Assembly: GCA_003194425.1 (NCBI GenBank) | Contig: PQXB01000003.1 | Location: 31,615 to 63,614 of the forward strand | Length of the DNA: 32,000 nt | Origin: Candidatus Methanophagaceae archaeon | GTDB lineage: Archaea; Halobacteriota; Syntropharchaeia; Alkanophagales; Methanospirareceae | Direction of reading: 5' to 3' | In this document: positions 921 to 30,495 of the stretch, piece by piece | How positions within the stretch are numbered: the first letter of the stretch is position 1 | How the letters are laid out: each line of letters starts with the position of its first letter | Program-made: the position numbers and the translations under genes | The notes under the pieces: generated by a model | What the model was told of the DNA's origin: nothing | The model's database searches: none | The model's input: only the letters and a program-made list of their open reading frames with translations

Positions 921-1802
921 TTATTTAAATAAAAAAATCTTCTCTTTTATCCTTTTTATCCGCCCAACCACTTCCGCAGTTGCGCCTGCTTCCGCGTCCA
1001 ACGGAGCCGTCCCTTCCAAATCCGCCTTCACCAACGCCTGCTCGTAAGGAATGGTCTCAAGCAGCGGAATGCCGAACTCCCGCAACTTCGCCTCCACCTT
1101 CTCCACCGCACCCGAGTCCGTAACCTTGTTCAGCACCGCCACGACTTTTTTAATACCAATGTCTTCGGCGAGTTTTTTTATTCTGTCCACCGTCTCAACT
1201 GACCTCATTCCCGGCTCCACCACAGCAAGCATCAAGTCAACGCCCTTCGCAGTCCCCCGCCCCAAATGCTCTACGCCCGCTTCCATATCCAGCACGACCG
1301 TGCTCTCGCGCTCCTTGAACAACAAATGCCGCAGCAGAGCGCGTAGAAAAGCGTTCTCAGGGCAGACGCACCCCGTCCCGCCCTGCACCACCGTTCCCAT
1401 CACCAGCAGCGTCACTCCATCCGGACCCCTCGCACCGTACCGCTCAATTATGTCGCTCACCTTCGGGTTCAGCCTGTAGACGCCAGTCCAGGCGGCAGAG
1501 GCAGAAGCAGAGGCAGAGCCAGAGCCAGAGGCAGAGGCAGAGCCAGAGCCAGAGGCAGAGGCAGAGCCAGAGCCAGAGGCAGAAGCACCAGCAGCAGTCC
1601 GCTCGAAAATCAAGTCCTTCAGTTCCGAAATCGGCGCAGGGTTCTCTTTAACGCCCAACGCGAACTTCAAATTCATCGCAGGGTCGGCGTCTACTGCAAC
1701 TACGGTTTCCCCTTCCTTCGCCTCCCTTGCGAAAAGGCGAGCCAACGTGCCCGCGATCGTCGTCTTGCCGACTCCTCCTTTTCCCGCAACCGCTATTTTC
1801 AT
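921..1802 (-). CDS. cooC: CooC/AcsF-type nickel-insertion ATPase (MinD/ParA superfamily)
   Basis: It has the deviant Walker A MKIAVAGKGGVGKTT, VDADP, and the CxC metal motif GTGCVCPENAFL characteristic of CooC. It carries an (SGSGSASA)n insertion. Confidence 0.8.
   Translation of the reverse strand: MKIAVAGKGGVGKTTIAGTLARLFAREAKEGETVVAVDADPAMNLKFALGVKENPAPISELKDLIFERTAAGASASGSGSASASGSGSASASGSGSASASASAAWTGVYRLNPKVSDIIERYGARGPDGVTLLVMGTVVQGGTGCVCPENAFLRALLRHLLFKERESTVVLDMEAGVEHLGRGTAKGVDLMLAVVEPGMRSVETVDRIKKLAEDIGIKKVVAVLNKVTDSGAVEKVEAKLREFGIPLLETIPYEQALVKADLEGTAPLDAEAGATAEVVGRIKRIKEKIFLFK
1495..1587. repeat. In-frame tandem repeat in cooC: 24-nt unit gcagaggcagagccagagccagag, 3 perfect copies (1507-1578) plus partial flanks
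   Basis: Read directly from the sequence. It encodes ASGSGSAS repeats on the minus strand. Confidence 0.9.
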
Positions 1803-1827
1803 TCTTACTTCAACAAACCTCCCTCCT

Positions 1828-2100
1828 TCACGGCGAGAGAATTTCCATTACTTTCACCGCAACGATTAGTGCGAAAATAATTAGCATCGGCACGATTGTG
1901 ATTGCCAGGCTTCCTGTCAGAGATTTTAGCCGCTCCTTGACGAGGGGGTTGTAGACTTCATTTTCGTAGGCGCTGCTCAGCTCCTTGGCGATCAACGCGA
2001 AAATCAAGATCCATGTACCAATTACACTCAAAGCGGCTGTGATTCCTAACGAGGTGGTGGCAACTACTACGGTAGTAGTGGTAACGGTGATGACGCTCAT
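1828..2100 (-). CDS. Small hypothetical membrane protein (two predicted TM helices)
   Basis: The ORF track gives 1828..2124. I prefer the ATG at 2100 (MSVITVTTTT...) because a TTTAAATA box at 2130-2137 lies about 30 nt upstream. The segments are hydrophobic and I recognise no family. Confidence 0.4.
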   Translation of the reverse strand: MSVITVTTTTVVVATTSLGITAALSVIGTWILIFALIAKELSSAYENEVYNPLVKERLKSLTGSLAITIVPMLIIFALIVAVKVMEILSP

Positions 2101-2161
2101 TTTTTTCTTATATTTATAGGACAAGGGGCTTTAAATAGTTTTTGTAGTTAAAATAAAACAG

Positions 2162-3820
2162 GTGCAAGAGGAGCTAAAAATGGAGTTGGAATATTTGTTG
2201 GCGGGGCTGTACGCATTTCTGATTTACTGGGTTGTCGTGTTAGTTCTAAACAAGCGGGGCGTTCTGCAGCGGTACAACATCGCCGCGTTCGGACCGATTT
2301 TGATGTTAAGGACGACGCGAGGGCAGAAGTTGTTGGAGTGGTTGGCGAGGGGGCGAGCAAGAGAACGGTTTTGGCGGGCGTTCGCAAACATAGGGACGGT
2401 TTTAGTGTTTTTCGCGATGGTTTTTATGTTTGCTCTCGTCGTGCTCGGAGCGGTTGCTACTTTCACGGTTCAGCCGGAGCTGACGGAGTTGCACTCGCCC
2501 AAGAACTGGCTGCTTATTCCGGGGTTGAACGATTTTATTCCGCTCTGTGCTTGGTTTGGGTTTGTGGTTGCGTTGGTGGTGCACGAGCTCGCTCACGCGG
2601 TCTTGAGCACGGTGGAGGGGATAAAAGTGAAGTCAATGGGGCTTTTGGTCGCAGTTGTGCCTGTAGGAGCGTTCGCAGAGCCAGACAGCGAGCAACTCTT
2701 CGGCGAGAAAGAGGAAGGGAAAGTGAAAGTAAAAGTGAAACCAAAAGCAACAGCCCGCGAGAGAACCCGAATTCTCGCTGCAGGCGTGACGAGCAACTTC
2801 TTCGTGGCTTTCCTCGCTTTTGCTCTCTTCTTCTCGATTTTGTCCGCGGTTCAGCCGGTCAGCGAGGAGGTGCTGTTTGTTCAGGAGGTGGTGCCAGGCA
2901 GCACAGCGGAGAAGGCAGGACTGCAGCCCGGAATGTTCGTCACAAAGGTCAAGAACACAAGCACGGCGGAAGTGAATCTGGACAGAGCGGTCGAGCGGAG
3001 AGAAGCGGTTGTTTTAAGCGTCTTAGACAAAACAGGGAAGGCGAGCGAGGTAGCGGTGGAAGGGGGTTACGAAAGTGAGGGCGTTAGAGTAGTGCAAGTT
3101 GTGGACGGGTTTCCAGCCGCGGACGCGGGCATTTGTGCAGGAATGAGTATAATAAAAATGGACGGCGTGAATGTCAGTGGCTACCGCGATTTTCGAAATT
3201 TTATGCAGCACACCGTTCCGGGTCAGACCGTAGAAGTGCAGACGAAAGGCGGCGAGAAGTTCTCTGTAAAGTTAGCAGTAGCCCCGAACGGGAGCGAGGA
3301 CGAAGACGAGGCAAAAGGCTTCTTGGGTGTCTCGCTTCTCGCAAACAACGGATTAGGAATCTGCGTTACTGAGTTTCCAACGAGAGGCTACTTGGAACAC
3401 CTGCGGAGCATTCCCTCCTCTCTCGCGTCGTTTTCAAGTCACAGCAGAGGCTGGCTGTGGCTGACAGCCCTACCATTTTTACCACCTCCCAACGGCTTCC
3501 GCAGTTTCAACCCTCTGCTCTCGCATTTCTACGAGCCAGTGGGTACTGCAGCGTCGTTTCTGGGCGACGGTATTTTCGTGGTCGCTGACTTGCTGTTTTG
3601 GGTGGGCTGGATAAATTTTTATGTCGGGCTGTTTAACTGCCTGCCCGCGGTTCCTCTCGACGGCGGCTACGTGTTCCGCGAGCTGCTGAACCCTGTGCTG
3701 CGGCTGGGCATAAAAGACGAGCGGAGGAAAGAGAAGGTCTCAAAAGCAATTACCGCAGCGCTCGCGCTTTTTGTCGCCGCTTCCATCGCCTTCACTCTGG
3801 TCGGCCCTCGTCTCTTGTAA
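2162..3820 (+). CDS. Site-2 protease, M50 family metallopeptidase with central PDZ-like region
   Basis: It has the HELAHAV zinc motif, the second S2P motif NCLPAVPLDGG, several TM segments, and PDZ-like stretches (PGSTAEKAGLQPGM, FPAADAGICAGM). The start could instead be the ATG at 2180. Confidence 0.85.
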   Translation: MQEELKMELEYLLAGLYAFLIYWVVVLVLNKRGVLQRYNIAAFGPILMLRTTRGQKLLEWLARGRARERFWRAFANIGTVLVFFAMVFMFALVVLGAVATFTVQPELTELHSPKNWLLIPGLNDFIPLCAWFGFVVALVVHELAHAVLSTVEGIKVKSMGLLVAVVPVGAFAEPDSEQLFGEKEEGKVKVKVKPKATARERTRILAAGVTSNFFVAFLAFALFFSILSAVQPVSEEVLFVQEVVPGSTAEKAGLQPGMFVTKVKNTSTAEVNLDRAVERREAVVLSVLDKTGKASEVAVEGGYESEGVRVVQVVDGFPAADAGICAGMSIIKMDGVNVSGYRDFRNFMQHTVPGQTVEVQTKGGEKFSVKLAVAPNGSEDEDEAKGFLGVSLLANNGLGICVTEFPTRGYLEHLRSIPSSLASFSSHSRGWLWLTALPFLPPPNGFRSFNPLLSHFYEPVGTAASFLGDGIFVVADLLFWVGWINFYVGLFNCLPAVPLDGGYVFRELLNPVLRLGIKDERRKEKVSKAITAALALFVAASIAFTLVGPRLL

Positions 3821-3853
3821 CCCTCTCCCTCATTTCACGAAGTCTCTTCTAAC

Positions 3854-4369: not shown

Positions 4370-4374
4370 TTTCC

Positions 4375-4860: not shown

Positions 4861-4888
4861 TTTTCCTTTTTTACTCTCCCCGTACTCT

Positions 4889-4956
4889 CTTACCCCTTCA
4901 CTACTCTCCAATCTACACTACTCTTACCCCTTCACTACTCTTACCCCTTCACTACT
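4889..4956. repeat. Intergenic tandem repeat: 17-nt unit cttaccccttcactact, 4 copies (third-position copy 4906-4922 degenerate)
   Basis: Counted directly: 4889-4905, 4906-4922, 4923-4939, 4940-4956. A weaker fifth unit follows. Confidence 0.9.
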
Positions 4957-4977
4957 CTTCAACTTACATTCCAACCC

Positions 4978-5752: not shown

Positions 5753-6484
5753 ATGTTTGTTTTTGGGCATCTCGGGGTAACGCTGGGAGTCGTATTTTTG
5801 GCGCTACGGCTCTTAAAATTAAGAACAAAACTTGAAATCAAGTTCAACCGCCGTCTCTATCTTTTTGTCTTCACGGGCTCGCTCTTGCCTGATTTAATTG
5901 ACAAGCCAGTAGGCGAGATTTTGCTGGCAGGTTCAATCTCAAACGGCAGAATCTTCGCCCACACGCTCCTCTTCAACTTTCTCCTGCTACTCTTTTGTCT
6001 TTGGCTGTACAAGCGAAGCGGCAGCCGAGAAGGGAGAGAAGGGAGCAGAGAAGAGAGAGAAGGGAGAGAAGGGAGCAGAGAAGAGAGAGAAGGGAGAGAA
6101 GGGAGCAGAGAAGAGAGAGAAGGGAGAGAAGGGAGCAGAGAAGAGAGAGGGCTAGGAGGAAACAAGAATGGTTTTGGGTTTCTGCTCTTCAGTTTTGCTT
6201 CTTTTCTTCACCTCTGCGAGGATCGGATGTGGCTCACTCCAGAGACGCTGTTCTTCCCTGTTTTTGGGTTTGAGTTTCCGCAAGGCGCGGTAGAATCGCA
6301 CTGGTGGGACTTTTTTTTAGGCTGCTTTTTCGGGACTTACTCGCCTTTGAGGGGTGCTGAACTCTCGTACGTGTTTGTCTCTGAAATGGTAGGCTTTTCG
6401 GTCCTGCTGGCGTTCGGTTTGCATCATTTCCACAGTTTTATCCTCCGCTACCGAATGTCGAACCAGAGGTGGAGTTCGCGGTAA
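5753..6484 (+). CDS. Membrane-bound metal-dependent hydrolase-like protein (DUF457/YdjM-like)
   Basis: It begins MFVFGHLGVTLG and contains LLPDLIDKPVG and AHTLLF, which are DUF457-like motifs. It is interrupted by (EGREGSREER)x4. Confidence 0.5.
   Translation: MFVFGHLGVTLGVVFLALRLLKLRTKLEIKFNRRLYLFVFTGSLLPDLIDKPVGEILLAGSISNGRIFAHTLLFNFLLLLFCLWLYKRSGSREGREGSREEREGREGSREEREGREGSREEREGREGSREERGLGGNKNGFGFLLFSFASFLHLCEDRMWLTPETLFFPVFGFEFPQGAVESHWWDFFLGCFFGTYSPLRGAELSYVFVSEMVGFSVLLAFGLHHFHSFILRYRMSNQRWSSR
6031..6150. repeat. In-frame tandem repeat: 30-nt unit agggagagaagggagcagagaagagagaga, 4 copies, almost pure purine
   Basis: Copies lie at 6031-6060, 6061-6090, 6091-6120 and 6121-6150, with one mismatch at 6150. 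Confidence 0.95.
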
Positions 6485-7212: not shown

Positions 7213-7240
7213 AGAAAATTTTAGAGCGTTTAGAGCGGTG

Positions 7241-7317
7241 AGAGGAGAAGGAGAGGAGAAGGAGAGGTGTGGAAAAGGAGGAGAAGGAGGAGAGGAGAGG
7301 GAGAGAGAGGAAAGCAG
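7241..7317. other. Homopurine/homopyrimidine tract (27-nt and 47-nt purine runs split by tgt)
   Basis: Read directly: agaggagaaggagaggagaaggagagg tgt ggaaaaggaggagaaggaggagaggagagggagagagaggaaagcag. It lies between the mtd stop and the MPKSK start. Confidence 0.9.
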
Positions 7318-8446: not shown

Positions 8447-9145
8447 TTACTTCAGCACCTCCAGCAATGCAACCCGCTCCAAGACCAACTTCCCTAACTT
8501 CTCCTCGCCCTTCCCCTTTCCCTCACCCTTTCCCTCACCCTTTCCCTCACCCTCACCCTTTCCCTCGCCCTCGCCCTTTCCCTCGCCCTTTCCCTCTCCC
8601 ACCGCCCTCAACTCCGCTTCGGTTACGCCAAAGAACTTTTTTATTCGCTCCCTCTTCGCCTCATTCAATTCTAAAACCGCCTCTTCCTCCAACCCCGTCT
8701 TCCTCTTCACCTCCGCCGCCACCGCCTCCAAATCCAACTCCTTCTTTCTCTTGCCCTCTCCCTCCCTCACTGCGTCAAAAATAACGACCGCAACACTCTT
8801 CTCGTCGCCTTCGCGCTCTGACGCCGAGACGCCAATTTCCAACGCCCGTCCAATCTGCCTTCTACCCGCAGCGTACAAGAGAACCTCCAAGCCCAGGTCG
8901 CTCGTTAGGTTTCTTCCGCTCTTTTCGGCTCTCACCGCCTTCTGAACCGCTGACTTTAAGTGCTCCTCGCCTGCCACTAAGTTCGCGTTCAGAGCTTGCA
9001 CCACCACGCCGTCGTAGTTGGAGGCAACGCTTTTCAGCGTAGCAAGAAAAGCCTTTAAATTCGGAATGCGGACTTTACCGGCGAGTATTTTGGTGTTTAT
9101 TTTGGAGTTTTGTTCCCGCTCTAAATATTTTTCTTGGTTTTGCAT
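8447..9145 (-). CDS. cgi121: KEOPS complex subunit Cgi121
   Basis: VQALNANLVAGEEHLKSAVQKAVRAEKSGRNLTSDLGLEVLLYAAGRRQIGRALEIG matches the Cgi121 core pattern. A C-terminal (GEGKGE)n insertion is present. Confidence 0.7.
   Translation of the reverse strand: MQNQEKYLEREQNSKINTKILAGKVRIPNLKAFLATLKSVASNYDGVVVQALNANLVAGEEHLKSAVQKAVRAEKSGRNLTSDLGLEVLLYAAGRRQIGRALEIGVSASEREGDEKSVAVVIFDAVREGEGKRKKELDLEAVAAEVKRKTGLEEEAVLELNEAKRERIKKFFGVTEAELRAVGEGKGEGKGEGEGKGEGEGKGEGKGEGKGKGEEKLGKLVLERVALLEVLK
8504..8600. repeat. In-frame tandem repeat in cgi121 (6/12-nt units ccctttccctcr, about 8 units)
   Basis: Read directly. It encodes GEGKGEGKGEGEGKGEGEGKGEGKGEGKGKGE on the minus strand. Confidence 0.9.
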
Positions 9146-9231
9146 TTTGCATTTTTTTACAGTTGCATTTTTTTACAGTTTGTTATTGTTTTGCTTTACT
9201 AGTTAACAAATAAAGGGAAATAAATGGGAAA

Positions 9232-9792: not shown

Positions 9793-10955
9793 AAAACAGG
9801 AAGAAGATAAAAGTAGGGGTCTTGGGAGCGACGGGAAGCGTGGGGCAGAGGTTCGTGCAGCTTTTAGACGGACACCCCTGGTTCGAGCTCGCGGGGCTCT
9901 TCGCATCTGAGAGGAGTGCAGGGAAAAAATACCGCGAGGTGGCGAAGTGGTTCCTGCCGTCTGAAATGCCAGAGGAGGTTGCGGAGACGGTAGTACGGTC
10001 AGTGGACGAGGCGGGTGCTTCAGTGAGAGGAGACGGAGGAGACGAAGATGAAATCGCAATTATGTTTTCCGCTCTGCCGGGGTCGGTTGCGAGCGAAGTG
10101 GAGAAGAGGTGCGCGGCTGCGGGTTTCGCGGTCTGTACAAATGTCTCGGTGCACAGAATGGATCCCGACATTCCGCTGGTCATTCCGGAGTTGAACGCTG
10201 ACCATTTGGCTTTGATCGAGGTGCAGAAGAAGAGGAGGGGCTGGGACGGACGGGGCGGGTTCATCGTGACGAACCCGAACTGCTCTGCGATTGTTCTGAC
10301 TTTGAGTCTGAAGCCGCTGATGCAATTAGGGAACGGGATAAGGGAGGTGCGGGTAGCGACGATGCAGGCGGTCTCGGGCGCCGGTTACGCAGGCGTGCCC
10401 TCGATGGCGATTATTGACAACGTGCTCCCTTTCATCGGAAACGAGGAGGAGAAAATGGAGACCGAGCCACTCAAGATTCTCGGCACGCTGGAAGTGGAAG
10501 CGGGAGCGGGAGCAGGAGCGGGAGCGGGAGCAGGAGCAGGCTGGAAGAGAATAAAAAATGCTGAGTTCAAGGTCTGTGCCTCTTGCCACCGCGTTCCTGT
10601 TTTAGACGGGCACACAGAGGCGGTCTGGGTGCGGTTTGAGGACGGGGAAGGAGGGGAGGATGGGGAGAGTGTGGGGGTGGAAGAAGTGAAATCGGCGTTC
10701 AGAAACTTCGCTACGCCACTAAAAACGCCGTTCGCACCTGAAAACCCGATAATTCTGCGTGAAGAGCCGGACAGACCGCAGCCGAAGTTGGACAGGGACG
10801 CGGGTGGGGGAATGAGCGTCTCGGTCGGTCGGGTGAGAAAAGGGCGGGCGGAGAACGAAGTGAAATTTATCACGCAGGGGCACAACACAGTGAGGGGCGC
10901 TGCCGGTGCCTCGATTTTAAACGCCGAGGTGCTGGTTGAGAGGGGCTACATTTAA
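9789..10955 (+). CDS. asd: Aspartate-semialdehyde dehydrogenase (archaeal type)
   Basis: It has the KVGVLGATGSVGQRFVQLL NAD(P)-binding N-terminus, the active-site region TNPNCSAIVL, and GHNTVRGAAGASILNAE at the C-terminus. It carries a (GA)n insertion. Confidence 0.88.
   Translation: MKNRKKIKVGVLGATGSVGQRFVQLLDGHPWFELAGLFASERSAGKKYREVAKWFLPSEMPEEVAETVVRSVDEAGASVRGDGGDEDEIAIMFSALPGSVASEVEKRCAAAGFAVCTNVSVHRMDPDIPLVIPELNADHLALIEVQKKRRGWDGRGGFIVTNPNCSAIVLTLSLKPLMQLGNGIREVRVATMQAVSGAGYAGVPSMAIIDNVLPFIGNEEEKMETEPLKILGTLEVEAGAGAGAGAGAGAGWKRIKNAEFKVCASCHRVPVLDGHTEAVWVRFEDGEGGEDGESVGVEEVKSAFRNFATPLKTPFAPENPIILREEPDRPQPKLDRDAGGGMSVSVGRVRKGRAENEVKFITQGHNTVRGAAGASILNAEVLVERGYI
10500..10540. repeat. In-frame tandem repeat in asd (6-nt ggagcr units; 18-nt gcgggagcgggagcagga x2)
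   Basis: Read directly. It encodes AGAGAGAGAGAGAG. Confidence 0.85.
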
Positions 10956-14177: not shown

Positions 14178-17176
<2,999 letters not shown>

Positions 17177-19052: not shown

Positions 19053-19067
19053 CTCCCTCTACCTCTT

Positions 19068-22082: not shown

Positions 22083-22102
22083 GCATTTTTGTTTTTTCTT
22101 TT

Positions 22103-22141
22103 GCGTGTTTGTTTTGCGTGTTTGTTTTGCGTGTTTGTCTT
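22103..22141. repeat. Intergenic tandem repeat: 13-nt gcgtgtttgtttt x3
   Basis: Copies lie at 22103-22115, 22116-22128 and 22129-22141 (1 mismatch). The array sits in the divergent promoter region between the ABC ATPase and DsrE-like genes. Confidence 0.9.
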
Positions 22142-22204
22142 GTTTTTATAAAAGGAAAAAACATTTTTTAAAGGAAGGAACATTTATTTAAGTGGTGAGA
22201 AAAA

Positions 22205-22594: not shown

Positions 22595-22711
22595 CCGACC
22601 TAACCTGACTCCGCTAACTTGACTCCGCTTTTCTTCCCTCCTACCTCTCCTCTTAGGGAAAGGTGGAGAAGGGGGAAGGGGGAAGACTATTTTTTTATTT
22701 TTGTCTTTGTT

Positions 22712-24313
22712 TCAGTCCTTTCCGAACTGCTCCACCGCACTCTCCGCAGCGTCGACCATAACATCCCGATGCAACGAGACGCAGGGGTCAAAGCTCTTCT
22801 CCATTCTGCTCAACTCCTTCGCTGTCACCCCTTTTCTGATTGCGTTGCAGAGCCCGTCAATTCTGTCCGCAACCATTTCCTCGGAGACTAACTGCGCACC
22901 TACCAACCGCTCGGAATAAGAGTCGAAGAGCAATTTCACCGCCATTGTTTTCCTCCCTTGGTAGAACCTCGCTCTCGTTGGCTTTTCCTTCTTTCCGCTC
23001 ACCACTTTCATCCCGAACCTCGCAGCGGTCTCGGTTGTAATTCCTACCGTGCCTACTTGGAAGTCTGAGATCGTCGCCACCGCGGGGCTCAGGGCAGGCT
23101 CAAGCGAGTAGCCGACGCCCGTCAAATTATTTGCAACGACTTTCGCCTGCACCAGTGCGGAAGAGGCGAGTTGGCTCAGTCTCGGGCGAAGCGTAATTGC
23201 GTCTACGACCTCTACACAGTCGCCGAGTGCGTAGACATTTTTTATGTATTTTCCCCCCTCCGCCTGCCCCTGCCTTCTTTTAACCTGTAGGTACTGGTTG
23301 GTTACAATTCCGCCAGTCTCGCCGATTTGCAGACCTGCCTTCTCTGCCAATTCTGTATTTGGAATCATCCCTCTCGAAATCACGACAATATCTGCAGGAA
23401 TTTCCTCTCTTTCTCCCTCTCCCTCTCTTTCTCCCTCTCCCTCTCTTTCTCCCTCTCCCTCTCTTTCTCCCTCTCCCTCTCTTGCCTCTGGCCCTCCTAC
23501 CACGACTGACTTCACCTTTGACTTCACCTTCGCACCGTCGCCTTTTATCTCCTTCACCTGTTTTCCAAAAATGAACTCAACCCCCTCCTTCTCCAGCCTT
23601 GCACGAACTAAAGAGCCCATATCGGGGTCTAAAATGCTGGAGAGCGGTGTTGGATGCCCGACTACAACCCTCGTCTTCAACCCCTTTTTCAAGAAAGCGA
23701 GAGCCACCTGCAGCCCAATCGTACCACCGCCGAGAACCACTGCGTTCTTCGCTTCCGGAGAATTCATCGCCGCCTCTATCTTCTCGCCGTCTTCTACGGT
23801 GCTCATTGTGTAAACCCCTGCCAGTCCTCTCCCTTCTCCTTCTGCTCCAGGTATTTTAAGGACATCAGGGACACGAGGTCGCCGCCCGGTCGCGATTACG
23901 AGAAAATCATATTTTATCTCCTCTTCACTCCCGAGACTTCCAGGACTCCCAGGACTCCCGAGACTCCCAGGACTCCCGAGACTCCCAGGACTCCCGAGAC
24001 TCCCAAGACGCACGCTGCTCTCTTCTAAATTAATTCCCGTCGCTTCGGTCTCTGTTCGGTAGTCAATGCCGTGGCTAACGAAGGTCTCTGGCGGGTCAAT
24101 CTCCGCGACCTCCTTCATATTAAAAACCCCTTGCAATGCAAGTGGCACCGCGCAAATAGATGCAGAACCGCCCTTCTCCTTCTTCACAAGCGTTATCTCA
24201 AACTGCTTGAGAACCTCCGCCCCTTTCTTAAATAGTGCTTCCACCGTGTATGTCCCCGCGTCACCACCGCCAATTATCACTAATTTTTTCGCCATTTTCC
24301 CTCCTTTAAACAT
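22712..24313 (-). CDS. FAD-dependent pyridine nucleotide-disulfide oxidoreductase (CoA-disulfide reductase/NADH oxidase family)
   Basis: It has KKLVIIGGGDAG (FAD), a single redox Cys context SASICAVPLAL, VVLGGGTIGLQVA (NAD) and YALGDC. Two low-complexity insertions are present. Confidence 0.85.
   Translation of the reverse strand: MFKGGKMAKKLVIIGGGDAGTYTVEALFKKGAEVLKQFEITLVKKEKGGSASICAVPLALQGVFNMKEVAEIDPPETFVSHGIDYRTETEATGINLEESSVRLGSLGSPGSLGSPGSLGSPGSPGSLGSEEEIKYDFLVIATGRRPRVPDVLKIPGAEGEGRGLAGVYTMSTVEDGEKIEAAMNSPEAKNAVVLGGGTIGLQVALAFLKKGLKTRVVVGHPTPLSSILDPDMGSLVRARLEKEGVEFIFGKQVKEIKGDGAKVKSKVKSVVVGGPEAREGEGEREGEGEREGEGEREGEGEREEIPADIVVISRGMIPNTELAEKAGLQIGETGGIVTNQYLQVKRRQGQAEGGKYIKNVYALGDCVEVVDAITLRPRLSQLASSALVQAKVVANNLTGVGYSLEPALSPAVATISDFQVGTVGITTETAARFGMKVVSGKKEKPTRARFYQGRKTMAVKLLFDSYSERLVGAQLVSEEMVADRIDGLCNAIRKGVTAKELSRMEKSFDPCVSLHRDVMVDAAESAVEQFGKD
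23405..23476. repeat. In-frame tandem repeat: 18-nt ctctctttctccctctcc x4 perfect
   Basis: Copies lie at 23405-22, 23423-40, 23441-58 and 23459-76. It encodes (EGEGER)4 on the minus strand. Confidence 0.95.
23927..24007. repeat. In-frame tandem repeat: 9-nt actcccrrg x9
   Basis: Read directly. It encodes GSLGSPGSLGSPGSLGSPGSPGSLGS on the minus strand. Confidence 0.9.
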
Positions 24314-24332: not shown

Positions 24333-25286
24333 ATGCAGGAAAGCCTGATGATGGAGTGCATACAGCGCATACAATGCGCCGAGGCGGTAGTAGAGTTAGA
24401 GGAAAACTGCGACCTCGTGTGTAAACGGCGAGTAGCGAAGCGGTACAGGGTAAAGGAAATAGACGAGCGGCTAAGGCGGGAGAGGACGAAGAGCGAAGCG
24501 AAAATAATCTCGGAAGCGAGGCGGAGAGGCGTCCTTACGCCAATTATTTTCGACATTTCCGACTACGAAATCGTGATGGAGCGGGTAGAGGGGGTCTTGG
24601 CGAGAGAGGTGTTTGAGCGGGAGGGCGAGGCAGACGAGGGCAGCGAAGTGGGTGAGGGCAGCGAAGTGGGTGAGGGCAGCGAAGTGGGTGAGGGCAGCGA
24701 AGCGGTAAGCGAGAAAATAGGCGAGTTTGTCGGCGTCTTGCACGAGAACGGGATAATTCACGGCGACTTGACTACCTCTAATATCATCGTCGTGAGACGG
24801 GACGGTAGGGAGAGAACCGTCTATTTCATTGACTTCGGGCTCTCCTTCTACGAATCGAGCGTAGAAGCGAGGGGCGTAGACGTGCACGTATTTTTCCAGA
24901 GCCTTCAAGGCACGCACGAAAGACACGAGCGTTTAAAGGACGGCTTTGTGCGGGGCTACAAAAAATCCTCCCCTGACGCAGCACGAGTGCTGAAAAGGGT
25001 AGAGGAAATCGAGCATCGGGGGCGGTACGTGAAGAGGAAGAGAGAGAAGACAGAGAACTGGAGAAGAGAGAAGACAGAGAACTGGAGAAGAGAGAAGAAG
25101 AAGAAAACTTCAACTCCAAAATTCCAAGACACTCACGTACGAGAGCGTTACAACCACCCCAGCGAGCAGCACGCCTGCAAAAATAGCACTAAACGCGTGC
25201 CTGCTGCGAATGCCGAAGACGAACGCGACTGCACACGCCGTCCAGGCTCCTGTTACGGGCAGAGGAACGGCGACGAACGGAATTAG
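24333..25286 (+). CDS. bud32: KEOPS kinase Bud32 (PRPK) with about 85-aa C-terminal extension
   Basis: From the ATG at 24333 I recognise GAEAVV, V.KRRV.KRYR....D..LRRERT..EA.....ARR.GV, IVMERVEG, IIHGDLTTSNI, YFIDFGLS, VD.HV and E.RGRYV. The first in-frame stop is at 25284-25286. The upstream 89 codons of the track ORF are antisense to the oxidoreductase gene. Confidence 0.85.
   Translation: MQESLMMECIQRIQCAEAVVELEENCDLVCKRRVAKRYRVKEIDERLRRERTKSEAKIISEARRRGVLTPIIFDISDYEIVMERVEGVLAREVFEREGEADEGSEVGEGSEVGEGSEVGEGSEAVSEKIGEFVGVLHENGIIHGDLTTSNIIVVRRDGRERTVYFIDFGLSFYESSVEARGVDVHVFFQSLQGTHERHERLKDGFVRGYKKSSPDAARVLKRVEEIEHRGRYVKRKREKTENWRREKTENWRREKKKKTSTPKFQDTHVRERYNHPSEQHACKNSTKRVPAANAEDERDCTRRPGSCYGQRNGDERN
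24636..24707. repeat. In-frame tandem repeat in bud32: 18-nt gagggcagcgaagtgggt x4 (last copy 2 mismatches)
   Basis: Read directly. It encodes (EGSEVG)n. Confidence 0.9.
25044..25091. repeat. In-frame tandem repeat at the bud32 C-terminus: 24-nt gagaagacagagaactggagaaga x2 perfect
   Basis: Copies lie at 25044-25067 and 25068-25091. It encodes (EKTENWRR)2. Confidence 0.9.
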
Positions 25287-25595
25287 CCCCAGAGACCCGT
25301 ATTTTTCCATTCGGTCGTTGTACCGCCTCGTTCGTGAGAAGAGCCAGTCAAAGAACCTGTCGAATGCCGAGAATCGCCGCAGCCAGTTTGAGACCGGCTC
25401 GAGAAAGAGGAGTAAAAGCACGACCGGCAGCATATTTCCTACTACCGAGAGAAGAAAGGCTCGTGAGGGCGGCATTCCGAAAAAGCTGATTGCAAACGGA
25501 ATGGAAGTCCGGAGCTCGCCAAACGGGACCGTAGCCATCAAGACCACCTGCAGGCTCTCCAACGCTGCTCCAGCAACAGCAAAACTGAAAGGCAT
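25110..25595 (-). CDS. Small multidrug export-like membrane protein (COG2426 / Sm_multidrug_ex-like)
   Basis: 161 aa with 4-5 TM helices. It contains PFGELRTSIPFAI and IPFVAVPLPVTGAWTA, which I associate with this family. Confidence 0.65.
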   Translation of the reverse strand: MPFSFAVAGAALESLQVVLMATVPFGELRTSIPFAISFFGMPPSRAFLLSVVGNMLPVVLLLLFLEPVSNWLRRFSAFDRFFDWLFSRTRRYNDRMEKYGSLGLIPFVAVPLPVTGAWTACAVAFVFGIRSRHAFSAIFAGVLLAGVVVTLSYVSVLEFWS

Positions 25596-25644: not shown

Positions 25645-27348
25645 ATGAAATTCGACCCAAAGCAGATAAGAGAAGAGACGAGGAGGGATTTTGAAGCCGC
25701 GTGGTTGGCGGGAACGAAATACGCGGGCGAGCGAAGCCTGAACGATAAATATCCGAGGTCCTTACTGCGTTTAGGTGTAGGAAAGCCGCACCCTGTTTTT
25801 GAGACGATTCAAAAGTTGAGAGAGGCGTACTTGCGGCTCGGGTTTGAGGAGGTGCTGAACCCGGTTGTGATTGAGGAGGCGGAAGTGAAGCGGCAGTTTG
25901 GAAAGGAGGCGCTTGCGGTTCTTGACCGCTGCTACTACCTCGCGGGTCTGCCTCGTCCTGACATCGGAATTTCAGACGAGCGGGTGAAGCGAATGAACTC
26001 GTTCCTCGAGGGGAAAGCGTTCTCGAAGGAAGCGGAGGAGGTAGAGGCGCTCAGGAGAACCTTGCACCGCTACAAGAAAGGCGAACTTGACGGCGACGAC
26101 CTGGTCTTTGCGGTGGCGGAGAGTTTGGACGTGGCGGACACGGAGGTGACGAAACTGCTTGACGGCGTCTTCCCGGAGTTGAAGAGCCTTGCTCCTGTCC
26201 CGCTCGGTTCAGCCGACTCGGGCAGTGGCAGGAGCACACTGCGAAGCCACATGACTTCAGGTTGGTTCTTGACACTTGCTGAGGTTTGGAAGAAGAGACC
26301 GCTGCCGCTGCGACTCTTCTCGGTGGACAGGTGCTTCAGGCGAGAGCAGCGCGAGGGCGAAATCCGACTCCGCAACTACCACTCCGCTTCTTGCGTGCTA
26401 CTCTGCGACGAGGCTGGTGACGAGGCTGGTGACGAGGCTGGTGACGAGGCTGGGGCAGGAAGAGGGGGAGTGAGCGTGGACGACGGCAAGGAGGTCGCGA
26501 CGGGGCTGCTTCTGCAGTTCGGGTTCGATAAAATGCGGTTCAGGGCGGACGAGAAGCGGTCAAAATATTACATTCCAGACACACAGACAGAAATTTTCTG
26601 CCACCACCCACGAATCGGGTGGGTGGAGGTGGCGACTTTTGGGATTTACTCGCCCACCGCCCTCGCACAGTACGACATTCCTTACCCTGTGCTGAATCTC
26701 GGGTTGGGCGTGGAGCGGTTGGCGATGATTCTGCACGACGCGGACGATGTGCGGGCGTTGGCGTTTCCGCAGTTCCACGCCGAGTGGCGACTGAGCGACT
26801 TGGAGTTGGCGGGGCTGGTGAGCGTTGCCGAGACGCCCTGCACCGCGGAGGGTGAGGAAATTGCGAGGGAAATTGTTCGGGTCTGCGAGGAAAAGGGCGG
26901 GGAGGAGTCGCCTTGCGAGTTCCTCGCTTGGCGTGGGTGCGTGTCTGGAGGAGGAGAGGGGAAGGGGGAGGTAGAGGTGTGGGTAGTGGAGTTGGAGGAA
27001 AAGACGCTTTTGTGCGGTCCCGCGTGCTTGAACGAGGTGGTCGTGCACGAGGGTTCGGTGCTTGCCGTGCCGAGGGGGAAGAAGGAGTGGGAAGCGGTCT
27101 TTGAGGCGGGCGTGCCGACTGGGATAAGATTTTTGGACGCTTTTGCTGCTCTTGCGGCTCGCAAGATTGAACTGTGGGGGGAGAGGGGGGAGGAGAAGAA
27201 CTGCGAGGTGAAGGTAAAAATGGTGAGGAGTGGGGCGGACGTGAACATAAAAATAGACGACTTGGCGGTGCGTTTTGTCACCTCGTGGAAGAAGAAGGTG
27301 GATTTGAGGGGACCTGTTTTTGTTACGGTGGTAGCTAAGCGGATTTGA
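25645..27348 (+). CDS. sepS: O-phosphoserine--tRNA(Cys) ligase (SepRS)
   Basis: The N-terminus is MKFDPKQIREETRRDFEAAW. It also contains YPR...GKPHPVFETIQKLREAYLRLGFEE..NPV, EALAVLDRCYYLAGLPRPDIGISDE and LRSHMTSGWF, which are diagnostic SepRS strings. It carries a (DEAG)4 insertion. Confidence 0.93.
   Translation: MKFDPKQIREETRRDFEAAWLAGTKYAGERSLNDKYPRSLLRLGVGKPHPVFETIQKLREAYLRLGFEEVLNPVVIEEAEVKRQFGKEALAVLDRCYYLAGLPRPDIGISDERVKRMNSFLEGKAFSKEAEEVEALRRTLHRYKKGELDGDDLVFAVAESLDVADTEVTKLLDGVFPELKSLAPVPLGSADSGSGRSTLRSHMTSGWFLTLAEVWKKRPLPLRLFSVDRCFRREQREGEIRLRNYHSASCVLLCDEAGDEAGDEAGDEAGAGRGGVSVDDGKEVATGLLLQFGFDKMRFRADEKRSKYYIPDTQTEIFCHHPRIGWVEVATFGIYSPTALAQYDIPYPVLNLGLGVERLAMILHDADDVRALAFPQFHAEWRLSDLELAGLVSVAETPCTAEGEEIAREIVRVCEEKGGEESPCEFLAWRGCVSGGGEGKGEVEVWVVELEEKTLLCGPACLNEVVVHEGSVLAVPRGKKEWEAVFEAGVPTGIRFLDAFAALAARKIELWGERGEEKNCEVKVKMVRSGADVNIKIDDLAVRFVTSWKKKVDLRGPVFVTVVAKRI
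26407..26454. repeat. In-frame tandem repeat in sepS: 12-nt gacgaggctggt x4
   Basis: Copies lie at 26407-18, 19-30, 31-42 and 43-54, with the last base of the last copy differing. Confidence 0.95.
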
Positions 27349-27356
27349 GTCTCTAA

Positions 27357-28916
27357 TCAAGACCCTCCCGCCGCCGCCCCACCGACCAAAATCCTCTTCA
27401 CCCGCACGTGCGGTGCGAATTCCGAGACCGGGACTTCTTGACCGTCCTTACCGCAGAACCCGATTGAACCTCGCTTCTTCTCCTGCCCCACCGCGTCAAT
27501 TTCTTTCAACACCTCCAGCGTCCTGCCCGAGAGCGAGACATTCTTCAGCCGCTTCGTGAGCCTGCCTTTCTCAATCAGGAACGCTTCTTCGGCGCTGAAC
27601 TGAAACTCGCCCCGCACCGTGTCCACCTGCCCCCCACGCATTCCCTTCGCGTAAATCCCAAACCGCACCCCCTCCAGCATTTCCTCAAAACTCCAACCTC
27701 TTCCCGCTCCCGCTCTCGAACCCGCTTCAACCACAGTGTTACTCATTCTGACCAGCGGAACTTCGGAATAATCAGCAGCCCTTGCGTTCGCAGTCGGCGT
27801 CGCCTCCAACCTGCCCGCGGTCTCCCTCGTGTGCAAGTAGGAGACCAGAACGCCGTTCTTTATTATTTCTGTCCTCCTCGCCCGCAGCCCCTCGTCGTCG
27901 TACTTGTAGTAGCCGTGCGACCCCACGACGGTCGGGTCGTCGGCAACGGTCAAGCCCTCGTAAGCTACCTGCTCGCCCAGTTTGTCCTTCAGAATTGACT
28001 CACCGCATAAAACGTGGTCGGCTTCCGCGGCGTGCCCGAGTGCCTCGTGCATAAAAACACCCGTGAGCTTGCTGTCCATTATTACAGGGAACTCGCCAGC
28101 AGGAGGCTGTTCAGCGTCAAGCAGCCTGACCGCCTTGTCCGCGGCCTTTACACCCACTACCTCGGGATTCCCCTCCGCTGCCACTCCCTCCGCTGCTACT
28201 CCCTCCGCTGCCACTCCCTCCGCTGCCTCTCCCTTCGCTACCTCTCCCTCTTCTGCCACGACCTCAAACCCAGCCACCGCTCCCACGCTCTCCACGCCTT
28301 CCTGCAGAACGCTGCCTTTCTTTGCAACTACACGCACGCGCAAAAAAACCGCAGGCATCTCAGTTACGACAAAACACCCCTCAGAGTCCGCGTAGGTCTT
28401 CTCCTCGTAGCCGTCCAAATACAAAATAGAAACGCTTTTTACGAGTGGGGAGTGCTGCGTTGCCGCTTTGTACGCTGCCTTAACCAGCCTCTTTTTCTCC
28501 TCTACGCTAACATCCTCAGGATTTATTTTCGGCTTCAGTTTAAAATGGTCGCTCCGCGGCTTCGCACCTGCCATTTTTACGGCTTCCTCCTCCCTCTTCT
28601 TCTCTAATTCTGACTTCTCCGATTCTAACTTCTCTGATTCTGATTTTGAGAGCGACAACGCCCTTCCAACCCTTAAAGCGTCCTCAAAAGCAGCCTTTAT
28701 TCTGGGCTTTGAGAGCTCGTTAGAGGAGGAGAAGCCCCACGAGTTTTTGTAGAGCACTCTTACGCCCACGCCCTCGTCAATTCCGTAACTCATTTCTCTG
28801 AAGACGCCGTCTCTCAATTCGAGGGTAGTTGCGTAACCTTTTTCGAGCCGAATGTCCGCGAATCTCGCCCCCTCCGAAATCACAAAATCCACTGCCTTTT
28901 TTATCTCTTCTTGCAT
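27357..28916 (-). CDS. tldD: TldD/PmbA-family metalloprotease (TldD-like)
   Basis: From the ATG at 28916 it reads MQEEIKKAVDFV...ADIRLE. It has the HEALGHAAEAD zinc motif, PLVRMSNT, and a GG-rich C-terminal fold. It carries an (AAEGV)n insertion. Confidence 0.88.
   Translation of the reverse strand: MQEEIKKAVDFVISEGARFADIRLEKGYATTLELRDGVFREMSYGIDEGVGVRVLYKNSWGFSSSNELSKPRIKAAFEDALRVGRALSLSKSESEKLESEKSELEKKREEEAVKMAGAKPRSDHFKLKPKINPEDVSVEEKKRLVKAAYKAATQHSPLVKSVSILYLDGYEEKTYADSEGCFVVTEMPAVFLRVRVVAKKGSVLQEGVESVGAVAGFEVVAEEGEVAKGEAAEGVAAEGVAAEGVAAEGNPEVVGVKAADKAVRLLDAEQPPAGEFPVIMDSKLTGVFMHEALGHAAEADHVLCGESILKDKLGEQVAYEGLTVADDPTVVGSHGYYKYDDEGLRARRTEIIKNGVLVSYLHTRETAGRLEATPTANARAADYSEVPLVRMSNTVVEAGSRAGAGRGWSFEEMLEGVRFGIYAKGMRGGQVDTVRGEFQFSAEEAFLIEKGRLTKRLKNVSLSGRTLEVLKEIDAVGQEKKRGSIGFCGKDGQEVPVSEFAPHVRVKRILVGGAAAGGS
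28171..28260. repeat. In-frame tandem repeat in tldD: 15-nt ccctccgctgccact, 4 good plus 2 degenerate copies
   Basis: Copies start at 28171, 28186, 28201, 28216, 28231 and 28246. Confidence 0.9.
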
Positions 28917-28984
28917 TTTTATAGAAACAAAACAGAATTTGTAGAAATAAAACAAAAGCAAAACAAAATCTAAAAAAGAAGAAG

Positions 28985-29058
28985 GGGGCTGTAGCTCAGA
29001 CTGGGAGAGCGCTCGGCTGAAGACCGAGTTGTCCCGAGTTCAAATCTCGGCAGCCCCA
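28985..29058 (+). tRNA. tRNA-Phe (anticodon GAA)
   Basis: Folded by hand. Acceptor GGGGCTG/CAGCCCC; D arm GCTC-AGACTGGGA-GAGC; anticodon stem CTCGG/CCGAG with loop CTGAAGA; T arm CCGAG-TTCAAAT-CTCGG; discriminator A. No CCA is encoded. Confidence 0.9.
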
Positions 29059-29079
29059 CTACGCCACTCTACCCAAGAA

Positions 29080-30495
29080 ATGATAACAATTGCGTTGGCA
29101 GGGAAGCCGAATTCAGGAAAATCAACATTCTTCAAGGCTGCTACGCTCGCCGATGTTGAAATCGCTTCGTACCCGTTCACGACGATTTCGCCAAATGTCG
29201 GGGTCGCCTACGCGAGGGTAAAATGCCCCTGCAAAGAGAGAGAGGTTCTGGAGGCTGTAGGAGGTGGTGGAGACGGCAGCGGAGACGGTGGAGACAGTGG
29301 AGACGGTAGAGACGGTAGAGACGGTAGAGACGGTGGAGACGGTGGAGACAATGGAGGTGGCGGAGGTGGCGGAGGCGGGTGTGGGAATTGCGTCGACGGG
29401 GTTCGCTTCGTGCCTGTAGGTCTCTTAGATGTTGCAGGTCTTGTCAGGGGTGCGCACGAGGGAAAGGGGCTGGGAAACGAGTTCCTGGACGAGCTCAGGC
29501 AGGCAGAGGCGATAATTCAGGTCGTTGACGCTTCTGGCGGGACAGACGCAGACGGGAATGTGGTGGAGCGCGGGACGCACGACCCCTACGAAGATGTCCT
29601 TTTTTTCCGGGAAGAACTGACCGAGTGGGTAAAGGGGATTTTAAGCAGAAACAAGCGGAAACTGGAGCGAAAATCTGAATTAGAGACAGGAGCAGGAGCG
29701 GGAGGCGGTGCGAAGACCGCACGGCTGCTTGCCGAGCAGTTAGCCGGCGTTGGCGTGACCGAGGAGCAGGTAAAAATCGCTATTTTGAAATCCCTCGTCG
29801 CGGGCAAGCCCAACCTAAAATCGTGGGACGGAGACGACCTCAAAGATTTAGCCGCGCAGTTGGTAAAGCAGAGTAAAAAAATGGTACTTGCCGCAAACAA
29901 GGCGGACGCAGCACCAGAGGCGGAGGAGAACATAAAAAAGCTGAAGGAACTTTGCGAAATTGAAGGAGAGGGCGAGGTAGTCCCGTGCTCTGCGGAGGCG
30001 GAGCTTGCGTTGAGAACTGCTGCAAAGAACGGGTTCGTAAAATACCTGCCCGGCGACACGGATTTTGAAATCTCTCCCTCTGCGTCGGCAGAAATTACAG
30101 AGAAGCAGAGACGAGGGCTGGAAAAAATACGAAAACTAATTCAAAATTTTGGCGGCACAGACGGCGGCACAGACGGTAGCGGCACAGACGGCACAGGCAC
30201 GGGAACTGGAACGGGCGTTCAAGCAATTATAAATCGTGTGGTCTTCGATTTGCTGGACTACGTGGTTGCGTACCCTGTAGAAGACGAGCACAACTTCAGC
30301 GACGGCTCGGGCAGAGTCCTGCCAGACGCGTTTCTTTTGAAGAAAGGTAGCACCGCGAGAGACCTTGCCTACGCAATTCATTCAGACATCGGCAGGGGCT
30401 TTCTTTACGCAATTGACGCGAGAACGAAGCGGAGGTTGGGGGAGAAGTACACACTGCGGAGCGGCGACATTTTGAAGGTCGTTTATGCGAGATGA
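29080..30495 (+). CDS. OBG/YchF-related GTPase (Ygr210-like) with C-terminal TGS-like domain
   Basis: From the ATG at 29080 it reads MITIALAGKPNSGKSTFF (G1). It also contains YPFTTI (G2), LLDVAGLV (G3), AANKAD (G4), and a C-terminal GDILKVV. The track start at 29029 would overlap tRNA-Phe. Two G/D/T-rich insertions are present. Confidence 0.85.
   Translation: MITIALAGKPNSGKSTFFKAATLADVEIASYPFTTISPNVGVAYARVKCPCKEREVLEAVGGGGDGSGDGGDSGDGRDGRDGRDGGDGGDNGGGGGGGGGCGNCVDGVRFVPVGLLDVAGLVRGAHEGKGLGNEFLDELRQAEAIIQVVDASGGTDADGNVVERGTHDPYEDVLFFREELTEWVKGILSRNKRKLERKSELETGAGAGGGAKTARLLAEQLAGVGVTEEQVKIAILKSLVAGKPNLKSWDGDDLKDLAAQLVKQSKKMVLAANKADAAPEAEENIKKLKELCEIEGEGEVVPCSAEAELALRTAAKNGFVKYLPGDTDFEISPSASAEITEKQRRGLEKIRKLIQNFGGTDGGTDGSGTDGTGTGTGTGVQAIINRVVFDLLDYVVAYPVEDEHNFSDGSGRVLPDAFLLKKGSTARDLAYAIHSDIGRGFLYAIDARTKRRLGEKYTLRSGDILKVVYAR
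29269..29379. repeat. In-frame tandem repeat: 9-nt rgagacggt / ggaggtggc units, about 12 copies
   Basis: Read directly. It encodes GDGSGDGGDSGDGRDGRDGRDGGDGGDNGGGGGGGGG. Confidence 0.9.
30151..30216. repeat. In-frame tandem repeat: 12-nt ggcggcacagac x2, then degenerate ggcacr units
   Basis: Read directly. It encodes GGTDGGTDGSGTDGTGTGTGTG. Confidence 0.85.

Follow-up and report, generated by a model that had tools for sequence, protein, structure and literature searches.

We analyzed 32,000 nt of contig PQXB01000003.1 (GCA_003194425.1) from a Candidatus Methanophagaceae archaeon, hereafter the window, in which short tandem repeats run through conserved housekeeping genes and the spacers between them. 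Open reading frames (ORFs) and Pfam matches revealed housekeeping genes packed along the window on both strands. They encode SepF, a CooC/CbiA-type ATPase, an M50 site-2 protease (S2P), two CBS proteins, EMC3, a YdjM/DUF457 membrane protein, a DUF1616 protein, Mtd, Cgi121, a methyltransferase, Asd, a 936-residue beta-helix/NosD protein, a lumazine-synthase-like protein, a DUF3160 protein, ProB, a HAD hydrolase, a class-V aminotransferase, LarB, an ABC ATPase, a Pyr_redox_2 oxidoreductase, Bud32, a small multidrug-export protein (Sm_multidrug_ex), SepRS, TldD, a YchF-type GTPase, RuvC and EMC6. An Rfam scan of the window returned tRNA-Gln and tRNA-Phe as its sole matches.

Tandem arrays in the window

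Arrays were defined as merged Tandem Repeats Finder (TRF) calls with a score of at least 50. The window contained 31 such arrays, or 0.97 per kb. Periodicities of 66-204 nt at 11889-13072 are native coils of the beta-helix/NosD protein and were excluded from the count; these 69-nt (23-residue) coils (PF13229 and PF05048, 76-81% identity) are structural repeats, separate from the phenomenon described here. The other 29 arrays cover 1,808 nt, corresponding to 5.7% of the window and 0.9 arrays per kb, with 20 located in coding sequence and nine lying between genes or across gene ends. A first-pass annotation made from the same DNA had listed arrays gene by gene. Each was recovered by TRF in the gene named, with about the unit and copy number given, and the weaker tracts suggested for Mtd and the S2P protease were seen at scores of 30-45. 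The inventory itself was incomplete, as the coding arrays in SepF, the HAD hydrolase and EMC6 and the nine intergenic or gene-end arrays had been missed.

For comparison we used eleven sibling contigs from JGI, ENA, NCBI and Logan, which are 0.6-1.2% divergent from the window in aligned bases. They were recovered by a metagenome scan with the GTPase and by exact-protein look-ups with the GTPase and Mtd. In the public collection, 50 index blocks list the identical Mtd protein, and we read 23 contigs that encode it. Exact-protein look-ups with SepRS and CooC gave no match, and a SepRS search gave no relative above 74% identity, despite the existing siblings. The arrays are listed below in window coordinates, with length changes in siblings (L040 is one of them) relative to the window.

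812-856, minus strand: SepF N-terminus, imperfect 6/18-nt array encoding KGKREGGVGEGEGVG; length-invariant among siblings
1494-1587, minus strand: CooC/CbiA-type ATPase, 6/24-nt x3.8, (SASASGSG)n; siblings 0, -18, -30, -48, -54 nt
2707-2747, plus strand: S2P (M50) protease, weak 6/12-nt tract KVKVKVKPK; siblings 0, +6, +12 nt
4887-4959: between EMC3 and CBS2, 17-nt x4.3, not divisible by three; siblings -11, 0, +30 nt
6023-6149, plus strand: YdjM/DUF457 membrane protein, perfect 30-nt x4.1, 97% purine, (REGREGSREE)n; siblings -9 to -60 nt
7240-7311: between Mtd and DUF1616, GA/CT-rich, TRF period 11, not divisible by three; siblings -9 to +30 nt
8503-8600, minus strand: Cgi121, 12-nt x7.2, (GEGK)n; siblings -12, -48, -54 nt
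9147-9180: intergenic, perfect AT-rich 16-nt x2.1, not divisible by three; one sibling -16 nt (one unit)
10499-10537, plus strand: Asd, perfect 6/18-nt (18 nt x2.2), (AG)n; siblings +6 or +12 nt
11145-11176: intergenic, perfect 15-nt x2.1
14799-14825, plus strand: DUF3160 protein, 12-nt x2.2
15321-15354, plus strand: DUF3160 protein, 15-nt x2.3
16957-16992, plus strand: DUF3160 protein, 9-nt x4.0 (GEAGEAGEG)
17745-17801, minus strand: ProB, 24-nt x2.4, SKKEGRNK x2
18398-18460, minus strand: HAD hydrolase C-terminus, imperfect 12/24-nt array
19057-19094: stop codon of the aminotransferase gene and adjoining spacer, perfect 20-nt x1.9, not divisible by three
20581-20665, plus strand: LarB/AIRC, 12-nt x7.1, (SELR/SELK)n; L040 +12 nt (one unit)
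22086-22191: intergenic, T-rich 13- and 19-nt arrays, not divisible by three; L040 -31 nt
22600-22629: intergenic, 14-nt x2.1, not divisible by three
23404-23483, minus strand: Pyr_redox_2 oxidoreductase, perfect 18-nt x4.4, sense strand 100% purine, (REGEGE)n; L040 -18 nt
23927-24009, minus strand: Pyr_redox_2 oxidoreductase, 9/18-nt (x9.2), (SLGSPG)n; siblings -9, -45 nt
24636-24702, plus strand: Bud32, perfect 18-nt x3.7, (GSEVGE)n; L040 -18 nt
25037-25109, plus strand: ancestral stop codon of Bud32, 24-nt x2.4; L040 -24 nt
26407-26453, plus strand: SepRS, perfect 12-nt x3.9, (DEAG)n; three siblings one unit shorter (-12 nt)
28171-28259, minus strand: TldD, 15-nt x5.9, (GVAAE)n; siblings -12 or -15 nt
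28599-28643, minus strand: TldD, 15-nt x3.0, (SEKLE/SEKSE); two siblings +15 nt (one unit)
29277-29375, plus strand: YchF-type GTPase, 9-nt x7.7 then x2.6; siblings -9, -9, -27, -48 nt
30151-30196, plus strand: YchF-type GTPase, 12/15-nt x3, (GTDG)n; siblings -15, -6 nt
30635-30649, plus strand: RuvC, 15-nt GCGTTGTCGAGGTCC, one copy in the window; tandem duplicate in L032, L035 and L040
31383-31451, minus strand: EMC6 N-terminus, imperfect 15-nt array, E/K-rich, sense strand 100% purine; length-invariant among siblings
31489-31522: intergenic, perfect 16-nt x2.1, not divisible by three

In SepF, TRF reported a period of 17 nt due to an indel; the consensus unit has 18 nt, and the ORF is unbroken. 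A sub-period of 6 nt is visible in many arrays within units of 12, 18 or 24 nt. The first two arrays of the GTPase (29277-29375) encode a G/D-rich insert of ~37 residues between the CPC and CGNC motifs. At the end of Bud32 (25037-25286), the window has lost the stop codon found after RGRYVERK in relatives, so that the ORF passes through the 24-nt repeat and continues in antisense for ~175 nt into the convergent gene Sm_multidrug_ex (25110-25595, minus strand). The reality of the resulting C-terminal extension of ~80 residues is doubtful.

Excess over composition and over related loci

Mononucleotide shuffles of the window yielded no more than one array. The concatenated coding sequence contained 19 arrays, in comparison to a mean of 0.28 (maximum 2) in 100 within-gene codon shuffles. 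Amino-acid and codon usage therefore do not create the arrays, and composition at either level was rejected as the source of the excess. Other ANME-1 loci (26 loci, 253 kb) contained 11 arrays, or 0.043 per kb and 0.17% of bases, which puts the array density of the window at about 20-fold that of its relatives. Perfect repeats of at least 24 nt numbered 23 in the window and five in the same comparison set. The first-pass annotation had called this density abnormal for a prokaryote, an impression that these controls bear out. Archaea are reported to have fewer short tandem repeats than any other domain, with ~1 bp per kb (PMC12699852), and in the searchable literature we found no account of tandem repeats in ANME-1/Methanophagales chromosomes, nor of the sample accessions.

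Sibling sequence beyond the window (14.7 kb), with genes for the proteasome, DeoC, DHQS, DegT, ZPR1, DUF116, TiaS and others, carried 11 arrays (0.75 per kb) that obey the frame rule described below. As these flanks are equally repeat-rich, the trait is not confined to the window. Intermediate densities were observed in other Syntropharchaeia with a longer SepRS, namely 0.20 per kb in L028 and 0.43 per kb in the Alkanophagales locus L029. On these small samples, the repeat tendency may be graded across Syntropharchaeia, with the window lineage at the extreme.

Reading frame within and between genes

The consensus unit of all 20 coding arrays in the window is a multiple of three nucleotides, as the first-pass annotation had stated. 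The nine intergenic or gene-end arrays have periods of 17, 11, 16, 15, 20, 13, 14, 24 and 16 nt, seven of which are not divisible by three. With the sibling flanks included, periods divisible by three were found in 27 of 27 coding arrays (seven from the flanks) versus 4 of 14 intergenic ones (Fisher test, 9e-7). Small indels among the siblings gave the same picture: 48 of 50 in coding sequence were multiples of three versus 13 of 30 between genes, where the other 17 were not (Fisher test, 1.3e-7). The two exceptions in coding sequence are a mutually compensating 2+16 pair. Since arrays of other periods do occur between genes, the periodicity within genes probably reflects selection and not the repeat-forming process. 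Array density amounted to 0.79 per kb of coding versus 2.76 per kb of intergenic sequence. The ratio of 0.29, which includes a small intergenic count, comes near the one third that a frame filter alone would leave, i.e., if any period arises everywhere and only multiples of three survive in genes.

These counts, together with the housekeeping nature of the enzymes, do not describe a phase-variable contingency locus, where simple sequence repeats switch surface or virulence genes on and off by unit changes that alter the reading frame or the promoter spacing. A frameshift in the GTPase of L040, hinted at by a split gene call, was considered and rejected, as the array region is in frame.

Copy-number turnover among siblings

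Length differed among the siblings in 20 of 23 arrays and, within genes, always by multiples of the unit. At 0.6-1.2% divergence, this agrees with the recent or ongoing expansion that the first-pass annotation had proposed. Of the 50 small coding indels, 44 fell inside arrays, which even when padded cover less than 15% of the window. L040, which diverges from the window by 0.73%, had a different length in every near-perfect array (at least 86% unit matches) that it covers. Genes without arrays (Mtd, EMC3, CBS2 and the methyltransferase) were constant in length in all siblings. The only length-invariant arrays were those in SepF, Mtd and EMC6, all three of them imperfect, which fits a cycle of birth, fast change and decay. 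In L036, the 18-nt array of Bud32 kept its length with another mix of unit variants.

One birth event was seen directly. The 15-nt duplication in RuvC is polymorphic among siblings, is flanked by a 2-nt GC microhomology and represents a newborn array. The N-terminal hairpin region of RuvC also showed a change of ~18 nt, with 33 nt replaced by 15 nt in L035.

Private insertions seeded by local sequence

The first-pass annotation had described the arrays as lineage-specific insertions between conserved blocks, and they were absent from every orthologue examined of SepRS, the GTPase, the oxidoreductase, ProB, the DUF3160 protein and Bud32. SepRS carries four private insertions including (DEAG)n, none of which is present in 19 aligned ANME-1 orthologues. 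With 567 residues it exceeds nearly all of the best 120 database relatives, which have 527-540 residues and of which a few reach 558. The GTPase has 471 residues in comparison to 400-426 in ANME-1 relatives, with inserts at four sites. The arrays of the oxidoreductase, ProB, DUF3160 and Bud32 were likewise missing from the orthologues examined, in the case of all three DUF3160 arrays from three ANME-1 orthologues. Non-repetitive G/E/R-rich inserts are also present in the CBS proteins, the aminotransferase, DUF3160 and TldD.

Several arrays could be traced to a short precursor. In the oxidoreductase, (SLGSPG)n has grown from the SLGT and (REGEGE)n from the GEE of orthologues, ProB SKKEGRNK x2 has grown from the orthologue RSKK, and (GTDG)n of the GTPase adjoins a GTGTG motif found in sister lineages. 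A repeat search of the window found no unit common to two loci, and the purine-rich arrays match each other at only 60-64%. The arrays are duplicated local sequence, with nothing imported.

A protein of another lineage from Logan SRR27899006/7 (P0040, loci L030/L031) carries a low-complexity insert, DRDSGGVSDRDRDRDSDGTGD, of independent origin in the same SepRS loop as the window array. Sister-lineage GTPases carry their own E/G/K-rich insert at a different site (P0123-P0138; P0225). The insert sites of SepRS and the GTPase look like insertion-tolerant hot spots.

Chromosomal identity of the window

SepRS of the window is 68-73% identical to that of 20 ANME-1 (Methanophagales) species genomes, and the gene order oxidoreductase-Bud32-SepRS was found again in other ANME-1 loci. 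The GC content is ~52% versus 39-46% in all other ANME-1 loci fetched (L001-L026), and the GC skew tracks gene orientation. Conserved synteny, mixed gene orientation, tRNA genes and housekeeping content argue for a chromosome and against a Borg-like element, and a Borg-like element carrying host genes was rejected on synteny, orientation, tRNA genes and GC content. By its gene content and order, the window is thus assigned to chromosomal DNA of an ANME-1 lineage, and not to an extrachromosomal element.

In SepRS, the sense strand contains 37.5% G versus 28.5% in a relative, isoleucine is shifted to valine and lysine to arginine, and asparagine is less frequent. The composition of the lineage has shifted strongly, perhaps in connection with the repeat phenotype, perhaps independently of it. 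The IVYWREL content, an indicator of thermophily, disagreed from protein to protein.

Comparison with known repeat systems

Pervasive tandem repeats have been described for the Borg and mini-Borg elements of Methanoperedens (Schoelmerich et al. 2023, PMC9879509; bioRxiv 10.1101/2023.08.02.551345). In papers on Borgs, such repeats were reported to be virtually absent from the host chromosomes, and pervasive perfect repeats serve to tell Borg from host DNA (PMC9879509; bioRxiv 10.64898/2026.05.22.727314). Applying the Borg criterion of at least 50 nt and at least three units with no mismatch (PMC9879509), we obtained five regions in the window, which make up 1.28% of bases, about twice the 0.62% of an average Borg genome (PMC9879509).

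Seven of nine defining features of Borg repeats are shared by the window. Dense perfect or near-perfect direct repeats lie within and between genes, in-ORF units are all divisible by three and most intergenic units are not, units are unique to each locus, arrays are flanked by partial repeats, close relatives differ in unit number, the repeats are missing from homologues elsewhere, and the encoded repeats are rich in disorder-promoting residues and predicted to be disordered. The two features that differ are the carrier and the base bias. Borgs are huge, linear and extrachromosomal elements of Methanoperedens with low GC content, one coding direction per replichore and mostly unannotated genes, whereas the arrays described here lie on a cellular ANME-1 chromosome with higher GC content than its relatives, mixed gene orientation and tRNA genes. 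Borg repeats are enriched in extracellular and membrane proteins and show an A bias (Pro/Thr/Glu/Lys), in contrast to the essential housekeeping enzymes and the G plus A bias (Gly/Glu/Ser) of the window.

The arrays also resemble variable number tandem repeats (VNTRs) or minisatellites, which share microhomology-flanked duplications and stepwise whole-unit change among strains (bioRxiv 10.64898/2026.02.28.708716). Higher-order units built from 6-nt sub-repeats are a further likeness, but the density in the window is far over the prokaryotic norm and the arrays are concentrated in conserved genes. In Plasmodium falciparum, too, the conserved blocks of essential housekeeping enzymes are separated by hydrophilic low-complexity inserts that are hypervariable and specific to the lineage. 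The composition of these inserts follows the base bias of the genome, and neutral, adaptive and nucleic-acid-level explanations are debated for them as they are here. Plasmodium, however, is eukaryotic, its genome is AT-rich and its tracts are homopolymer-like stretches of Asn/Lys, in contrast to GA-rich archaeal minisatellites of 9-30 nt. The chromosome of Ehrlichia ruminantium consists of several percent tandem repeats, and their copy number varies between isolates, as in the window. Those repeats are mostly non-coding, whereas two thirds of the arrays in the window are in frame inside genes.

Other features of the region

The GTPase ORF read from TTG 29029 overlaps tRNA-Phe (28985-29059), and its real start is ATG 29080, as in the 471-residue database protein. 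At 30589-31155, this archaeal chromosome carries a gene for a RuvC resolvase of bacterial type (PF02075, E=4e-42), which the siblings have as well. Within the beta-helix/NosD gene (11221-14031, minus strand), adjacent 69-nt coil units are 95% identical (12615-12747), and a double unit of 138 nt recurs with 86-90% identity (11881-12156). The duplication process behind the arrays may also be adding coils to this protein.

A 65-nt inverted repeat has arms at 11034-11098 and 31635-31699, which are 95% complementary and 20.5 kb apart. The joins at this repeat differ among siblings, being EMC6-repeat-Asd, DegT-repeat-Asd or the arrangement of the window. As a multi-copy intergenic element, it would either promote rearrangements or mislead the assemblers. 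Three siblings (L042:6898-8414, L043 and L045) contain a 1,533-nt insertion at the asd 5' end (~9807), which carries a gene for a 288-residue NucS_C/EVE-type nuclease-like protein and a duplicated 65-67-residue N-terminal fragment of Asd and looks like a mobile-element insertion. A 727-nt insertion in the spacer between the S2P protease and CBS genes (~3827) encodes a Pol-beta nucleotidyltransferase/HepT-like toxin-antitoxin pair in two siblings (L042:14302-15133 and L043). The sibling GCA_026133975.1 contains an intergenic 8-nt repeat, AAGTGGAG, in 11 copies (L044:2387-2475). Fragments of IS605 OrfB and N6/N4-methylase genes (L044:4368-4896) lie immediately upstream of mtd in this sibling, at the place taken by tRNA-Gln and cgi121 in the window.

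Proposed mechanism

The arrays likely result from short tandem duplication and slippage, which would occur at a high rate throughout the lineage and on any sequence, with selection on frame and fold filtering the products. Arrays would be born when a segment of 9-30 nt between microhomologies of a few bases duplicates in tandem, probably by template slippage or faulty lagging-strand (flap) processing. Besides the single case of RuvC, support for this step is statistical. In 23 perfect arrays, terminal partial copies averaged 5.0 nt versus 0.74 nt by chance, and partial copies of at least 3 nt were found in 15 of the 23 versus 6% expected. This excess matches both the flanking partial repeats of Borgs and the microhomology arms of tandem duplications (bioRxiv 10.64898/2026.02.28.708716). 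From two copies on, whole units are gained and lost so fast that strains ~1% apart seldom share a copy number. Genes keep only arrays and indels that are multiples of three and encode flexible Gly/Glu/Ser/Ala/Arg/Lys peptides in loops or termini, while any period persists between genes; selection would be the cause of this difference. The residue counts, the SepRS structure alignment and the AlphaFold2 models given below under the first alternative are evidence for this filtering as well. Point mutations would finally turn old arrays into non-repetitive G/E/R-rich inserts, the length of which is then fixed. Most of the peptide loops are probably tolerated passengers and not designed features.

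Larger supply of microhomology as the cause of the excess was rejected. Outside the arrays, candidate microhomology sites are merely 1.15-1.4 times as frequent as in relatives. Set against a 20-fold excess of arrays, this implies that the rate per site, or retention, differs in the window lineage.

Several points weigh against this interpretation. The modest substrate supply leaves the raised rate to be explained, and our first guess for it, purely by inference, is altered replication or repair, for example of flap processing or polymerase slippage. The siblings are not phylogenetically independent, so that event counts are upper bounds, and metagenome assemblies are the source of all sequences. 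The neutrality of the inserts is suggested by their free copy-number variation. The sense strand of coding arrays is 78% purine versus 58% in the rest of the coding sequence, and this bias may owe something to a preference of the process for certain sequences or to selection on RNA. Moreover, 16 of 20 coding units contain GGAG or GAGG versus 11.8 +/- 1.8 after shuffling of the unit bases (P=0.011). The first-pass annotation had seen the motif in nearly all units and had offered codon content as a possible reason; indeed, the excess is mild and adjacency of Gly and Glu codons can explain it. As the motif is missing from four coding arrays and several intergenic arrays are AT- or T-rich, it is not required for array formation, and a role as recognition motif was rejected.

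Alternative explanations

The arrays could instead encode adaptive disordered regions, i.e., flexible charged loops kept for solubility, stress tolerance, interaction sites or condensates, as has been proposed for Borg repeats. In favor of this idea, the arrays persist in essential enzymes and encode disorder-promoting residues only: Gly (26%), Glu (23%) and Ser (12%), together 61%, are followed by Ala, Arg and Lys, and I, M, F, H, C, Q, W and Y are missing. They are also located in loops. The inserts of SepRS are gaps in the alignment to the Archaeoglobus fulgidus enzyme (PDB 2du3), and AlphaFold2 models built from 35-sequence alignments predicted coil with a predicted local distance difference test (pLDDT) score below 50 at 186-194 and 259-272 of SepRS and at 61-98 and 360-373 of the GTPase. 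Other low-confidence segments in the models are taken to be short motif-2 or switch loops. The independent inserts of P0040, at the same SepRS site, and of the sister-lineage GTPases, at another site, also speak for function. However, copy number varies freely and in both directions among strains ~1% apart, unit variants inside arrays differ non-synonymously, unrelated proteins of every functional class are affected and arrays are equally dense between genes. The coding density of about one third of the intergenic one is predicted by the frame filter alone. We therefore regard adaptive maintenance of the loops as unlikely.

Selection could also act on the nucleic acid, as in purine loading of mRNA, with the peptides as a by-product. 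The purine bias of the coding arrays (47% G and 31% A on the sense strand versus 33% and 25% in other coding sequence), the G enrichment of the sense strand in the lineage as a whole, as seen in SepRS, and a GC skew that tracks orientation are in line with it. However, the array in CooC, the only pyrimidine-rich coding array, is just 25% purine on the sense strand, and five of nine intergenic or gene-end arrays (9147, 11145, 22086, 22600 and 31489) are not GA/CT-rich, most of them being AT- or T-rich. Array formation is therefore independent of base composition. Since the codons for Gly, Glu, Lys, Arg and Ser (AGY) are already purine-rich, a filter at the peptide level yields the same purine bias. 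The arrays contribute only ~5% of coding bases, and a nucleic-acid-level cause appears very improbable.

A further alternative is a dedicated or element-encoded repeat-adding activity, either the machinery suspected in Borgs or an integrase-like copy-and-paste process. In its favor, the anatomy equals that of Borg repeats, with perfect and unique units, multiples of three in ORFs, partial repeats and fast turnover (PMC9879509), and the supply of microhomology sites leaves the 20-fold excess unexplained. However, a candidate gene was not found in the window or the sibling flanks, the units are local and not imported, and bidirectional whole-unit change is typical of slippage, so we give this explanation very little credence.

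Short-read assemblers can miscount units and metagenome assemblies were used throughout, but an assembly or sequencing artefact has next to no probability: the Logan SRR6664617 contig (L039), from another assembler, is 100% identical over 5.1 kb and reproduces five arrays base for base, which excludes an assembly artefact as the first-pass annotation had asked to be tested; the same arrays occupy the same sites in NCBI, ENA, JGI and Logan contigs; every array is shorter than 130 nt; and an artefact would not respect the reading frame. None of the outcomes that the first-pass annotation had named as refutations (the same segments in orthologues of related genera, a density no higher than expected, assembly artefacts) was observed.

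Implications

Repeats of this kind, namely VNTR-type, Borg-like amino-acid tandem repeats, are known; their setting in core genes of a cellular archaeal chromosome is unexpected. It means that the repeat-forming process does not require a Borg. With any period surviving between genes and only multiples of three within them, the region is a natural experiment that parts mutation from selection. For the ANME-1 group, core genes of variable length will interfere with orthology, marker-gene and strain-typing pipelines. The lineage is well sampled, and setting its genes for replication and repair against those of repeat-poor sisters could reveal the cause.

A more far-reaching proposal, for which we see a small chance, is that prolific formation of perfect tandem repeats is a cell-encoded trait of some methane-oxidising archaea and not a hallmark of Borgs, and that replication or repair altered specifically in this lineage, or a new repeat-adding activity, remodels its whole core proteome with disordered loops, some of which would have become functional. 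If this were true, the lineage would offer natural material in which to look for the machinery that makes Borg repeats.

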